Below are positions 26,831 through 30,471 of a stretch of 64,000 bases of DNA, piece after piece. The DNA lies in IMG/VR virus record IMGVR_UViG_3300027518_000004; one strand, written 5' to 3'. The translations under genes and the position numbers were made by a program. This DNA comes from a virus. Under the pieces are notes generated by a model. It saw only the letters and a list, made by a program, of their open reading frames with translations, did no database searches and was not told the DNA's origin. The stretch's first letter is position 1. Each line of letters starts with the position of its first letter.

Positions 26831-27373
26831 ATGCCAAATTTTCCTTATTTAAGTCCAGGTAGAAATCAAGTAGAGAATAGAAATTTTTTACAGCCGACTC
26901 AATTTTTATTCACAATAAACAAGGCACCTAAAGTTTCATTTTATTCCAATAGAGCTAATATCCCAGGAATTACATTAGGCCTTGCTGATTATCCAACTCC
27001 ATATAAAGATTTATACGAGCCAGGAGATAAAATAACATTTGATGATTTTAGCCTTAAATTTTTAGTTGATGAAAATCTTGAAAATTATTTAGAAATTTAT
27101 AAATGGATTAAAGGACTTGGTTATCCAGAAAACTTAGAGCAAATTTATAAGCTACAAACAAGTAAGGGTGGTATATATTCTGATGGAACACTTCAAGTAT
27201 TAAACAGCAGTCAACGTCCAAATTTTTCAGTTAAATATTATGATTTATTTCCTTATGATCTAACAACTCTTCTTTTTGATTCTACCTTAACAGATTCAGA
27301 TCCATTTACAGCAGAAGTAAAATTTAAATACACTTATTTTGAAATTGTTGATCCTAGTGGGAACCCTCTATGA
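26831..27373 (+). CDS. gp3: Tail completion / sheath stabiliser gp3
   Basis: NRNFLQPTQFLFTINKAPKV, LVDENLENYLEIYKW motifs; synteny with uvsY. Confidence 0.88.
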   Translation: MPNFPYLSPGRNQVENRNFLQPTQFLFTINKAPKVSFYSNRANIPGITLGLADYPTPYKDLYEPGDKITFDDFSLKFLVDENLENYLEIYKWIKGLGYPENLEQIYKLQTSKGGIYSDGTLQVLNSSQRPNFSVKYYDLFPYDLTTLLFDSTLTDSDPFTAEVKFKYTYFEIVDPSGNPL

Positions 27374-27795
27374 ATTTAAATGAAATTGAGACTATGTGGA
27401 AAGAGGATTCAGTAATGGATCCTGATAATCTCCATGAAGAAGCACTTAGAATACCAATACTACACAGTAAATATCATGAAATACAAAATAAAATTTATCA
27501 ACTTAAAAAAGTAAAAGAAGCAGAATATAATTCACTATACGCAGAAAAAACTCTTTATTACGCTGGAAAAGCGGATCCTAAAGTGTATGAAGAAAAACCG
27601 TTTCCTCATAAAGTATTAAAGAATGACATTCCGCTTTATTTAAATTCAGATGAAGAACTGGTCAAAATAAAAACAAGAGTTGATTATTGCAGCTATGTTA
27701 TGGCCTATCTTTCAGATATCCTGAAAATGATCCACAATAGATCTTTTCAAATCCGAGACAGTATTGAATGGAGTCGTTTCATAGCAGGTCAGTGA
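27370..27795 (+). CDS. uvsY: Recombination mediator UvsY
   Basis: WKEDSVMDPDNLHEE..IPILHSKY; IHNRSFQIRDSIEW. Confidence 0.92.
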   Translation: MNLNEIETMWKEDSVMDPDNLHEEALRIPILHSKYHEIQNKIYQLKKVKEAEYNSLYAEKTLYYAGKADPKVYEEKPFPHKVLKNDIPLYLNSDEELVKIKTRVDYCSYVMAYLSDILKMIHNRSFQIRDSIEWSRFIAGQ

Positions 27796-29261
27796 TGTCT
27801 GATATAATTATTGAAAAAAAGAATGAAGTATTTGTTAGATTGATTTGCGAGCCACACGTTCTTTATGAATTGGCTCCTTATTTTACCTTCGATGTACCTG
27901 GGGCCAAATTTGCCCCAGCATATAAACGTGGAGGGTGGAATGGTCAAATTAGTCTATTATCAAAAACCACTGGAGAAATATATGGTGGGTTGTTAGATAA
28001 GGTGATAGCCAAAATAAAGGCTTATGGCTACTCATATGAGTTCAAAAACAGTAAATTTTATGGTTGCCCTTTTGAAGTTAACGAAGAAATAAGTAATGAA
28101 GGTATTTCTGGATTTGTTAAGGCTATTGGACAAAGAGCCGGACTTGATCCATATGACTATCAGATTAATACAGTTTATGAATGTCTAAGATATAATCGCA
28201 AAACTGTTTTATCTGCAACTTCATCCGGTAAATCCTTCATGATTTATTGTATTTCAAGATATTACTTGATGAAAGGATTAAGAGTTCTTTGTGTATTTCC
28301 AACTACTTCTTTAATCCATCAAATGCATAAGGATTGGCAAGATTATGGATATGATTCAGACAATAATATTCACATGATTTACTCTGGTCAAAGTCATAAA
28401 ACCGACATGCCGGTAACATATTCGACCTGGCAAAGTATACATGAAAATCCTAAGTCTTTTTATGATAACTATGATGTAATTATTGTCGATGAGTGTCATG
28501 GGGTAAAATCTAAAAGTTTAGTTAATATTATGAAAAATGCTCATAATATTAAATATCGGTTTGGTTTTACTGGGACCCTGACAAACAATGATGACGGTAA
28601 GGCCGTAAATGAATTAACTATTACTGGTTTATTTGGCCCATCTTACAAAGCAATTAACACAAAAGAACTAATTGAAAAAGGTAGAGCCGCAAAATTAGAT
28701 ATAAAGTGTTTGGTCTTAAAGCATAAAGAACAAAAATTCTTTACTTATGAAGATGAGGTTCAATACTTAATAGGTAACGAAGAAAGAAATAATTATTTGA
28801 GAAATCTTTCTTTAAGTCTAAAAGGTAACACTCTTTTAATCTTTTCAAGAGTAGAAACTCATGGTCAAGTTCTTTATGATTTAATTAAGGAAAAAGCCGG
28901 CAATGACAGAAAAATTTTCTTTGTTCATGGTGGCGTAGAAGCAAAAGAAAGAGAAGACGTAAGAGAAATTGTTGAAAGAGAAAACAATGCGATTATTGTC
29001 GCTTCGTATGGAGTTTTTAGCACGGGAATTTCCATTAAGAACTTAAACAATATTATATTTGGGTTTCCAAGTAAAGGAAAGATTAGGGTTCTTCAAACCA
29101 TTGGTAGAGGACTTAGAAAGTCAAAAACAAAAGATCGGGCTGTTCTTTATGATATAGCAGATGATTGTGGAAGAAATTACACACTAAATCACTTTATAGA
29201 AAGAGTAAAACTGTATAATGAAGAAGAGTTTGAATATGAAATTTATAACATTAATTTATAA
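27795..29261 (+). CDS. uvsW: RNA-DNA / DNA helicase UvsW
   Basis: SATSSGKS, IVDECHG, GFTGT, QTIGRGLR motifs. Likely start is the ATG at 27795 (TGATG overlap). Confidence 0.95.
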   Translation: MSDIIIEKKNEVFVRLICEPHVLYELAPYFTFDVPGAKFAPAYKRGGWNGQISLLSKTTGEIYGGLLDKVIAKIKAYGYSYEFKNSKFYGCPFEVNEEISNEGISGFVKAIGQRAGLDPYDYQINTVYECLRYNRKTVLSATSSGKSFMIYCISRYYLMKGLRVLCVFPTTSLIHQMHKDWQDYGYDSDNNIHMIYSGQSHKTDMPVTYSTWQSIHENPKSFYDNYDVIIVDECHGVKSKSLVNIMKNAHNIKYRFGFTGTLTNNDDGKAVNELTITGLFGPSYKAINTKELIEKGRAAKLDIKCLVLKHKEQKFFTYEDEVQYLIGNEERNNYLRNLSLSLKGNTLLIFSRVETHGQVLYDLIKEKAGNDRKIFFVHGGVEAKEREDVREIVERENNAIIVASYGVFSTGISIKNLNNIIFGFPSKGKIRVLQTIGRGLRKSKTKDRAVLYDIADDCGRNYTLNHFIERVKLYNEEEFEYEIYNINL

Positions 29262-29408
29262 TCGTTGAGATTCTAATCCAGTAACTTCTACTCCCCTATT
29301 GATCATTTTCCTCATGGCAGCCTGGGCTATCTTTAATGAAAAGTGTACTGAGTACATTTGCTTATTCATATATTTGTAGCCTATTTTGTAAAACTCAAGA
29401 TGTTCCAC
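29256..29408 (-). CDS. Small hypothetical protein (50 aa, GTG start), not in the ORF track
   Basis: Hand translation: VEHLEFYKIGYKYMNKQMYSVHFSLKIAQAAMRKMINRGVEVTGLESQRL; overlaps the upstream minus-strand gene. Confidence 0.5.
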   Translation of the reverse strand: MEHLEFYKIGYKYMNKQMYSVHFSLKIAQAAMRKMINRGVEVTGLESQRL

Positions 29409-29685
29409 TGTTTATATTTTTTAGTAGTTTAATACTTTCATTTATTGACTCAATGATACAAAAGATAGAATTTCCTATAAAATTAGTATCCCCTGGAAAC
29501 ATTTCTAAATCGTTATAGAAATCTTCTTTTATATTTTCATATTGACTTATTAAAGTATTTACATAAGACTCTGGATCTTTACAGCTTAAAGAAATTTCAT
29601 AGTACTTTCCCCCATGAAATTCTGGAATTACTATGTTATAGGTAGTTCCGTCTTGTTTATGCACTGTTATCGTCCTCATGTTCAT
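29395..29685 (-). CDS. Small hypothetical protein (96 aa)
   Basis: MNMRTITVHKQDGTTYNIV...; the ATG at 29685 is preferred over the TTG at 29724 because of an ATGA overlap with an upstream ORF. Confidence 0.6.
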   Translation of the reverse strand: MNMRTITVHKQDGTTYNIVIPEFHGGKYYEISLSCKDPESYVNTLISQYENIKEDFYNDLEMFPGDTNFIGNSIFCIIESINESIKLLKNINSGTS

Positions 29686-29783
29686 GATGGGATAATATTC
29701 ATCATTGTAGCAACTGCCCAACACATGAGAATAGAATGAAAAGCGTTTAGATAATTAAGAGTATTTTGCATGTTTTTTACCAT
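29682..29783 (-). CDS. Tiny hydrophobic ORF (33 aa)
   Basis: MVKNMQNTLNYLNAFHSILMCWAVATMMNIIPS; starts about 7 nt after a predicted sigma70 start site. Confidence 0.4.
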   Translation of the reverse strand: MVKNMQNTLNYLNAFHSILMCWAVATMMNIIPS

Positions 29784-29795
29784 CTTGGCTCAAGG

Positions 29796-29824
29796 ATAAT
29801 ACTATATTGTCTTACTTAAGTCAA
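29796..29824 (-). promoter_or_regulatory. Sigma70-like promoter (leftward)
   Basis: TTGACT-17 nt-TATTAT on the minus strand. Confidence 0.7.
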
Positions 29825-29829
29825 CTAAC

Positions 29830-29857
29830 TATGTGCCAATTTATAGATTGGCATATA
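29830..29857. promoter_or_regulatory. Operator-like inverted repeat between divergent promoters
   Basis: TATGTGCCAAT-TTATAG-ATTGGCATATA, exactly 5 nt from each flanking -35 box. Confidence 0.65.
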
Positions 29858-29862
29858 CTAGC

Positions 29863-29891
29863 TTGACTTTTTTATTGTTTGCGGCTAGGAT
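29863..29891 (+). promoter_or_regulatory. Sigma70-like promoter (rightward, no gene downstream)
   Basis: TTGACT-17 nt-TAGGAT. Confidence 0.6.
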
Positions 29892-29984
29892 CGGTTTGTC
29901 GGGTTTGAAGGATTTCAGTATCTAATAATTTATTAATAAATAAAGAAACTTTAAATATCTAGATTTATCAAATATTTTTAGTAA

Positions 29985-30059
29985 CTGCTTCGCAGATGGT
30001 TACTTCGTAACCATAATCACATTATATTATCCCGAAGGGATGTTCTCCGTAGGAGAACA
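29985..30059. other. Cluster of four triloop hairpins (candidate origin element)
   Basis: CTGC-TTC-GCAG (29985-29995), ATGGTTAC-TTC-GTAACCAT (29996-30014), ATCCC-GAA-GGGAT (30029-30041), TGTTCTCC-GTA-GGAGAACA (30041-30059). Confidence 0.8.
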
Positions 30060-30060
30060 A

Positions 30061-30441
30061 TTAGTTATTATTTAATAATTTTTCTAATTTACTTTTCATC
30101 TCTTCAACATTAGAAATATATCCTTGTTTTTTACCTAGCTTTTCTTCATAAGGATCAACATATCCATTGATATTCTTTTGAGCTATAAACTTTAAATGAT
30201 AGTTTATAATATCTTTGTCCTTACACTCACTTAAAGTTATAACATTATTTCTATTAATAATATAGAGATCATCATCTGCTGTTTTTAACCAAGGTTCAAT
30301 TTTAAAGCCATAGTCACCACTTAAAGTTTTTATTTCACTGATAATAACTGGTTCATAAAGTAGTAAGAAATCTTTTTCAGTAGAGACAATAGCGAAGATC
30401 TCTTCCCCGGTTGTTAGCTTGATTGTAGCCGGAAACTCCAT
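30061..30441 (-). CDS. Conserved cyanophage-type protein, Sm-like fold predicted
   Basis: MEFPATIKLTTGEEIFA...FKIEPWLK motif; the usual inverted gene before gp55; ATG at 30441. Confidence 0.8.
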   Translation of the reverse strand: MEFPATIKLTTGEEIFAIVSTEKDFLLLYEPVIISEIKTLSGDYGFKIEPWLKTADDDLYIINRNNVITLSECKDKDIINYHLKFIAQKNINGYVDPYEEKLGKKQGYISNVEEMKSKLEKLLNNN

Positions 30442-30464: not shown

Positions 30465-30471
30465 TATTTAG
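30465..30471 (-). promoter_or_regulatory. Late promoter CTAAATA (minus strand)
   Basis: 23 nt before the ATG at 30441. Confidence 0.55.

Follow-up and report, generated by a model that had tools for sequence, protein, structure and literature searches.

The window, by which we mean the whole 64-kb stretch of DNA analyzed, comes from a T4-like cyanomyovirus. Its gene order from left to right is gp23 (encoding the major capsid protein), a tail-tube gene, uvsY (27370–27795), uvsW (27768–29261), three small open reading frames (ORFs) on the minus strand (29783–29256) and then the interval considered here. To the right of the interval lie a minus-strand gene (30061–30441) and the plus-strand genes gp55, gp47, gp46 and gp45. 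The minus-strand gene, termed T4-GC139, belongs to phrog_471, and its 3ʹ end faces a rightward promoter within the interval. The family is annotated in cyanophage records as "methylamine utilization" or Sm-like, as well as T4-GC139; the match of the product to Pfam Sm_like is weak (22.7 bits, under the curated cut-off of 29.4). A late-promoter-like CTAAATA is located on the minus strand at 30465–30471, approximately 24 nt upstream of the T4-GC139 start codon, and a sigma70-like site (30450–30422) overlaps that codon and so cannot serve the gene. The closest cultured relatives of the window phage are the freshwater Synechococcus/Cyanobium phages B3 and B23 (PMC7171214). No near-identical DNA was found in cultured phages, among which the block is common only to B3 and B23, where it was recovered only by sensitive search. 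Neither tRNA nor tmRNA genes were found when sought in the interval, and an Rfam search of it returned no relevant family at E values up to 10.

Two sigma70-like promoters diverge at the left of the interval. The leftward promoter (29796–29824, minus strand; TTGACT, 17 nt, TATTAT) serves the small minus-strand ORFs at 29783–29256 and is kept in relatives, though the genes that it drives differ. Comparison of window positions 29256–29783 with L001, L002 and L005 likewise indicates different leftward-promoter genes among otherwise close relatives, and the segment between uvsW and the element is a small hyperplastic spot. Between both −35 boxes is the palindrome TGCCAAT-N6-ATTGGCA (29834–29853), variants of which (TGACAAT-N6-ATTGTCA) are retained in the long-form clades described below; the palindrome is probably a regulator binding site. 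The palindrome/−35 region was also matched at four places in the siphovirus Microcystis phage Mic1 (MN013189.1; blastn E 0.4), probably by chance.

The rightward promoter, P_block (29863–29891, plus strand), consists of a −35 hexamer TTGACT (29863–29868), a 17-nt spacer and a −10 hexamer TAGGAT (29886–29891), which would place the transcription start near 29898. The preliminary description of this DNA had proposed a sigma70-like promoter here, and conservation upholds it: both hexamers are invariant in relatives, while the spacer is free in sequence and varies in length by 1 nt. The same description had called the promoter an orphan, without a gene to drive. No plus-strand ORF lies downstream before the convergent gene at 30061–30441, as it stated, but the promoter is the homologue of an antisense promoter of T4-GC139 and not a local feature. 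A small ORF of 30 codons that spans the promoter (29833–29925) was ruled out by a 1-nt indel in relatives.

The best-conserved noncoding bases of the region are the 22 nt located 3ʹ of the −10 hexamer (29892–29913, plus strand), which are invariant in close relatives. This box comprises a core TTTGT, followed by GGTT and then GAAGG; it spans the predicted start and begins partly upstream of it, is G-rich and C-poor on the non-template strand, and in the window lineage is made up of two tandem repeats of 8–9 nt each. A single copy is present in the 64-kb window. The other sigma70-like (TTGAC) promoters of the window lack the box, ruling it out as a general early-promoter feature. When the collection was scanned for the box without demanding a −35, 16 true instances were recovered, all 16 with TTGAC at the correct distance, along with five chance matches inside ORFs. 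Complete genomes of approximately 250 kb contain one to four promoter-box copies. Profile searches found four in the complete relative G002 and, in the complete relative G003, a tandem pair plus a third copy, of which at least one was recovered at profile E ≤ 1 and further diverged copies only with an earlier profile.

Diverged copies head ordinary genes in other phages, including a phrog_16 helicase (G002, L014 and L043), a 2OG-Fe(II) oxygenase whose ATG lies 14 nt past the predicted start (L020) and a GIY-YIG endonuclease (L034/L045). Because these copies head helicase, oxygenase and homing endonuclease genes, the box is a promoter feature rather than an antisense-specific one. GIY-YIG homing-endonuclease-like genes also abut the box at L015:5618–6334 and L045:2050–2280, in opposite orientations and in two phage groups, and the conserved box may be a homing target of these genes. 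In a test for a 5ʹ RNA hairpin, the antisense strand folded better in 51 of 57 marine versions of the box; the left arm of the marine hairpin, however, follows the −10 and precedes the likely start, and the window version does not fold.

The promoter and its box are not confined to the window lineage. Eighty diverse metagenomic cyanomyovirus loci were gathered by means of the T4-GC139 protein, and in all 77 for which the ORF could be delimited, an antisense promoter (TTGACN, a 16–18-nt spacer and TAnnnT) lies within 160 nt of the T4-GC139 stop codon. Of these loci, 59 have a 17-nt spacer, and 60 have TAGAAT, TACAAT or TATAAT as the −10. The distance from the end of the −10 to the stop codon has a median of 27 nt and is mostly 25–29 nt. 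The antisense promoter is also found in S-PM2, P-SSM4, Syn10, S-SSM7 and SynMITS9220M01; it is absent from S-CRM01, which has a 24-nt spacer. In an alignment of 62 sequences, the window box falls in register with the boxes of marine cyanomyoviruses, with TGT invariant and seven columns nearly so. In G002, T4-GC139 has its usual orientation, on the same strand as uvsW and gp55, and a diverged promoter-box copy in the spacer before gp55 is aimed back into T4-GC139; the marine single-cell viruses L012 and L013 and SynMITS9220M01 have the same backward-aimed copy. The promoter-plus-box is an old, nearly universal companion of T4-GC139 in T4-like cyanophages. In several phages of the common arrangement (Syn10, P-SSM4, L012 and G002), the −35 regions of the antisense and gp55 promoters overlap back to back, and because of this overlap the two promoters would be mutually exclusive competitors. 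The overlapping −35 sequences (TTGACAA..TTGTCAA) can be seen in L165, L164, L012 and G002:95860–95880.

The window has a different arrangement, in which T4-GC139 and the convergent promoter module have been inverted as a block, and which it shares with B3/B23, G003, L038 and L084. The promoter is convergent on T4-GC139 in every arrangement examined. In the short form, the promoter abuts the stop codon, with neither AT-rich tract nor hairpins. In the long form of the window lineage, an AT-rich leader of approximately 70 nt and four hairpins intervene between promoter and gene. Among the inverted, Sm-like-adjacent members examined, hairpins are present in all but B3/B23, which have an AT-rich tract and no hairpins, and the second unit of G003; in both of these exceptions, the promoter unit abuts T4-GC139 directly. 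The first unit of G003 ends in a three-way junction followed by five T residues, a canonical terminator, ahead of the second, gene-abutting promoter copy. In the L035 clade, the promoter is followed by an AT-rich tract, the two promoter-side hairpins and a separate promoter, with no convergent gene. The ORFs beside the element in this clade gave no PHROG match, and a link to an Sm-like gene was rejected there. Downstream of the two hairpins (L035:1268–1414, also in L030 and L026), an extended −10 (TGGTATAAT) is followed by four direct repeats, spaced by approximately 20 nt, and by a related 21-mer present in two inverted copies. This array, which could be an operator array or a set of iterons, is situated just upstream of a 73-aa ORF without a family match.

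The AT-rich tract of the window (29912–29984) is 12.5% GC and contains a 14-nt palindrome at 29928–29941. The preliminary description reported about 60 nt of AT-rich DNA with this palindrome; both are present, and the tract is the easiest melting site in the window. The GC content of 29912–29983 is within the lowest 0.1% of the window's 72-nt windows, and nearest-neighbor energies place the weakest 60-bp duplex of the whole window here. AT-rich tracts of 24–79 nt are present in all long-form clades, and tracts of 43–79 nt in every examined inverted member adjacent to the Sm-like gene, including B3/B23, with neither sequence nor length conserved. An iteron-like TTAGATA occurs in five of eight tracts, four times in that of L084, and was discarded since it shows no excess over shuffled sequences.

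Between the AT-rich tract and T4-GC139 lie four perfect hairpins with triloops closed by C:G pairs. The promoter-proximal pair (29985–30014, plus strand) is formed by hairpin 1 (29985–29995, 4 bp) and hairpin 2 (29996–30014, 8 bp), both with the loop TTC on the plus strand and GAA on the minus strand. The gene-proximal pair (30029–30059, minus strand) is formed by hairpin 3 (30029–30041, 5 bp), with the plus-strand loop GAA, which reads UUC in T4-GC139 mRNA, and hairpin 4 (30041–30059, 8 bp), with the plus-strand loop GTA, which reads UAC in that mRNA. Positions and loop orientations are those first reported, and the hairpins are recovered on either strand by RNA or DNA folding, with z-scores of −3.6 to −6.3 and no shuffle as good. 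Hairpin 4 was additionally called as a plus-strand terminator-like site. CCGAAGG is contained in hairpin 3, and the minus strand of hairpin 1 contains GCGAAGC. The window has no further C-GNA-G or C-TNC-G triloop hairpin of 5 bp or more, and outside ORFs such hairpins are restricted to the element, in the window as well as in G003, a complete genome of 250 kb. The ordinary intergenic terminators of the phage have A/T penta- to heptaloops followed by T runs, which rules out the triloop hairpins as its general terminator style.

Seven IMG/VR contigs whose T4-GC139 protein is approximately 81% identical to that of the window phage retain the whole interval. In these relatives, 97% of the cells at the 24 base pairs are paired and six pairs are changed on both sides, a covariation equaled by none of 500 shuffles and approached by no slid register. 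One substitution in hairpin 2 (column pair 26–30) leaves C.A on the plus strand and T.G on the minus strand. An alternative pairing of GTAAC (29981–29985) with GTTAC (29999–30003), suggested at the outset, is not conserved, as the GTGAC and GTTTC of relatives cannot pair. The wider expectation of covarying stems around constant loops holds, and the loss of GNA loops in relatives that would have told against the preliminary description is not seen: in five clades, the stems covary and the loops stay GNA, or complementary to GNA, with an order specific to each strand. In the L038/L044 and L084 clades, the stems are unrelated in sequence, and the layout is the same, namely, two TTC hairpins, a spacer and GAA hairpins. 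G003 has two hairpins, as does the L026/L030/L035 clade, and one homologous hairpin (GTTTTCC..GGAAAAC) has a GAA loop in one clade and TAC in another. Across the clades, the loop sequence in RNA transcribed from the nearer unit would be UNC for 23 of 24 triloops, a count that measures conservation and not independent events, as the long-form clades are few and their hairpins may share ancestry. The conservation and geometry of the promoter, the box and the hairpins thus form a real signal, stronger than first described.

We favor, with a rough probability of 0.45, the reading that a conserved convergent promoter yields a short untranslated RNA and that each of the converging transcripts ends in its own C-UNC-G hairpin pair. 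Under this reading, two convergent transcription units would meet in the interval. A promoter of host sigma70 type would fire rightward, toward the 3ʹ end of T4-GC139 (in the common arrangement, transcription would run straight back into that gene), to give an untranslated RNA of roughly 115–170 nt. The hairpins would end or stabilize both RNAs and block run-in between the units. The unit could regulate expression of T4-GC139 and, elsewhere, also affect the neighboring gp55 promoter, whether by antisense pairing, by transcriptional interference or by competition between promoters. The production of RNA, the position of its 3ʹ ends and its regulatory targets are predictions from the DNA. By the loop rule, which 23 of the 24 triloops follow, the first two hairpins met by each unit have loops UUC or UAC in that unit's own RNA. 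Two back-to-back pairs of RNA 3ʹ-end hairpins are the most economical reading because of this rule, the hairpins of the L035 clade and the terminator of G003. Overlap of the transcript with T4-GC139 mRNA is unavoidable in the short form and, in the window, would be set by the RNA ends within the hairpin cluster.

Antisense RNAs are established in cyanomyoviruses, an example being CfrI of S-PM2 (PMC2984593). Like CfrI, which belongs to the same phage family, the unit would start from a promoter on the strand opposite a conserved phage gene, and it lacks an ORF. CfrI, however, covers psbA and a homing endonuclease gene, whereas the unit described here adjoins the 3ʹ end of T4-GC139. It is further marked by a conserved box at its start site and by a fixed spacing from the stop codon and, in the window clade, is separated from the gene by hairpins. 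The PR'-6S RNA-tR' region of phage lambda combines a constitutive promoter, a regulatory element in the start region, a short untranslated RNA and a close terminator, and the unit would follow the same plan. However, no Q-like antiterminator or pause signal was identified here, and read-through would run antisense into a gene.

Several observations nonetheless sit poorly with the convergent reading. The hairpins of the window have no clear U tracts, unlike the ordinary terminators of the phage. The C.A/T.G substitution in hairpin 2 does not fit the assignment of that hairpin to its "own" plus-strand RNA, and promoter copies drive genes in other phages. If the hairpins terminate transcription, the RNA no longer overlaps the coding region and the ancestral antisense role would have been lost, yet the promoter is conserved. 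In addition, we know of no RNA biology that explains a requirement for C:G-closed UNC/GNA triloops. Such a constraint on GNA triloops is a hallmark of DNA mini-hairpins (PMC13037366).

The main competing explanation is a transcription-primed origin of the T4 oriF/oriG type, a role that we regard as unlikely. The promoter RNA would form an R-loop in the AT-rich tract and prime rightward leading-strand synthesis, and the GNA mini-hairpins, formed on the minus strand by the left pair and on the plus strand by the right pair, would exclude SSB protein and mark priming or helicase-loading sites for two forks, as do ssiA and ssiB of RSF1010. The minimal T4 oriF/oriG is an approximately 100-bp combination of a promoter and a sequence-nonspecific AT-rich unwinding element, in which a persistent R-loop primes synthesis (PMC3016281). 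The anatomy of the element matches this minimum: the promoter is followed by the AT-rich tract within approximately 100–130 bp, as at ori(uvsY)/oriF and ori(34)/oriG; no duplex in the 64 kb is less stable than the tract; and the box is G-rich and C-poor on its non-template strand. The neighborhood of recombination and replication genes is also similar, as the element adjoins uvsW and uvsY, and T4 origin promoters can serve genes too. However, the T4 promoters are MotA-dependent middle promoters, in contrast to the plain sigma70 type with a start-site box seen here, and the T4 origins have no hairpin cluster, whereas the element has four hairpins. As DNA, C:G-closed GNA triloops are exceptionally stable; as RNA, they are far less stable. 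They occur in N4 promoters and at single-strand initiation sites, among them RSF1010 ssiA with its CCGAAGG, and CCGAAGG and GCGAAGC form the cores of the mini-hairpins in ssiA and in phage priming sites (PMC13037366). Both cores are found here or in relatives. As in ssiA/ssiB, the G4 complementary-strand origin and N4 vRNAP promoters, C:G-closed stems carry GAA, GTA or GGA, and as in the ssi-type signals they lie on opposite strands flanking a spacer, beside an AT-rich region; the window clade, L038 and L084 all retain this opposite-strand order. GNA or complementary loops have been retained on wholly changed stems in five clades and in dyad-symmetric order, and intrinsic terminators are not known to need loop identity to be kept over replaced stems. 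Moreover, the hairpin 2 substitution is tolerated as T.G on the minus strand and C.A on the plus strand, the triloop hairpins are found nowhere else outside genes in the window or G003, and the element has a single copy in the window and one to four copies in each complete genome. Against this, most homologues of the promoter have neither AT-rich tract nor hairpins and fire straight into a coding region, so that neither an unwinding element nor DNA hairpins can be required for the primary role of the promoter. B3/B23 share the inversion and the AT-rich tract without hairpins, the place relative to uvsW/uvsY is not kept in G002, L014 and L020, and the GTTTTCC..GGAAAAC hairpin has exchanged GAA and TAC loops between clades. 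The GC-skew check proposed for an origin gave no support: the cumulative curves of the window, G002 and G003 stay monotonic across the element, which is weak evidence given that T4-like phages may show no skew. Gene orientation is uniform around the element in all three, and almost all genes of the two complete genomes are on one strand; a switch in transcription direction or in skew, such as coincides with some T4 origins, is therefore absent here. The ssi, G4 and N4 signals depend on dedicated enzymes, namely, the RepB' primase, DnaG acting on a single-stranded DNA phage and the N4 vRNAP; hairpin-recognizing enzymes of this kind are not expected in a T4-like phage, and no iteron-binding initiator is evident. 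Of the origin originally proposed, the promoter, the meltable tract and the covarying GNA hairpins stood, while the alternative pairing and the GC skew gave it no support, and the homologues without tract or hairpins and the gene-driving copies weakened it. A narrower version confines origin function to the long form, supposing that a clade of large freshwater cyanomyoviruses recruited the ancient antisense promoter to make the primer and added an AT-rich unwinding tract and two facing pairs of strand-specific GNA mini-hairpins for priming or helicase loading; this too strikes us as unlikely. A regulatory convergent promoter unit bounded by hairpins is better supported than the origin.

Two further possibilities were considered. 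The interval might encode a free-standing, trans-acting sRNA with the box as its 5ʹ seed, the AU-rich tract as a chaperone-binding region and the hairpins as its terminator, the chaperone perhaps being the Sm-like protein encoded next door; we hold this to be distinctly unlikely. A promoter without an ORF, with coding excluded by the 1-nt indel, is what such a gene would look like; the unit is discrete and has a good terminator in G003, the L035 clade repeats the promoter, AT-rich tract and hairpins without the Sm-like gene beside them, and in the window the neighboring gene has a weak Sm-like match. However, the canonical terminator is confined to G003, the U tails being weak in the window, where only the last hairpin was called. 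The same box starts mRNAs in other phages (the L020 ATG being 14 nt past the start), part of the box lies upstream of the predicted start, and the AU-rich part is unconserved in sequence and length. The Sm-like assignment of the neighboring gene falls under the Pfam threshold, and there is no Rfam family match at E up to 10. Very unlikely, in our judgment, is a mobile cassette of the PeSL type, in which the DNA would mainly allow co-infecting phages to recombine at a shared sequence and would insulate the genes that are shuffled, its transcript being functionless. A PeSL consists of a sigma70 promoter and terminator stem-loops (PMC2839356), and the element similarly joins a strong sigma70-like promoter to stable stem-loops beside variable genes in a T4-type phage, as in RB49 and phi1. 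The same cassette precedes unrelated genes in different phages, the genes to its left differ among close relatives, and in L015 and L034/L045 its direct neighbors are homing endonuclease genes. PeSLs, however, are many, highly repeated and located in hyperplastic regions, whereas the element has too few copies (one in 64 kb and one to four per 250-kb genome), one of them at a fixed locus. A mobile cassette would also leave unexplained both the fixed position against T4-GC139 (77 of 77 loci) and the constraint on the triloops.

A strong host-type promoter kept on the strand opposite a core gene, approximately 27 nt from the stop codon, clearly qualifies as a candidate control point, and it adjoins the gene for the late sigma factor gp55. 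To our knowledge, T4-like cyanophages lack the MotA/AsiA middle-transcription system. Loop identity and strand order that outlast replacement of the stems point to either an unrecognized rule for RNA 3ʹ ends or single-stranded DNA origin signals. We know of no T4-like cyanophage in which a replication origin has been defined; if the element were an origin, it would be the first defined by sequence in such a phage, and its hairpins the first of ssi type in a T4-type replicon. The Syn9 genome paper, as cited in PMC2984593, predicted a single origin.

Two minor observations concern related genomes. At least 15 intergenic hairpins of G002 (L057–L069) have 7-nt loops reading ATTCGAA, AATTGAA, ATTTGAA, AATCGAA or ACTTGAA and are possibly a repeated, PeSL-like stem-loop family. 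In phage B23, the gp55 ORF (L010:881–2395) is 1515 nt long and matches the window gp55 in two separate pieces, which suggests an insertion, an intein or similar, in the late sigma factor gene.
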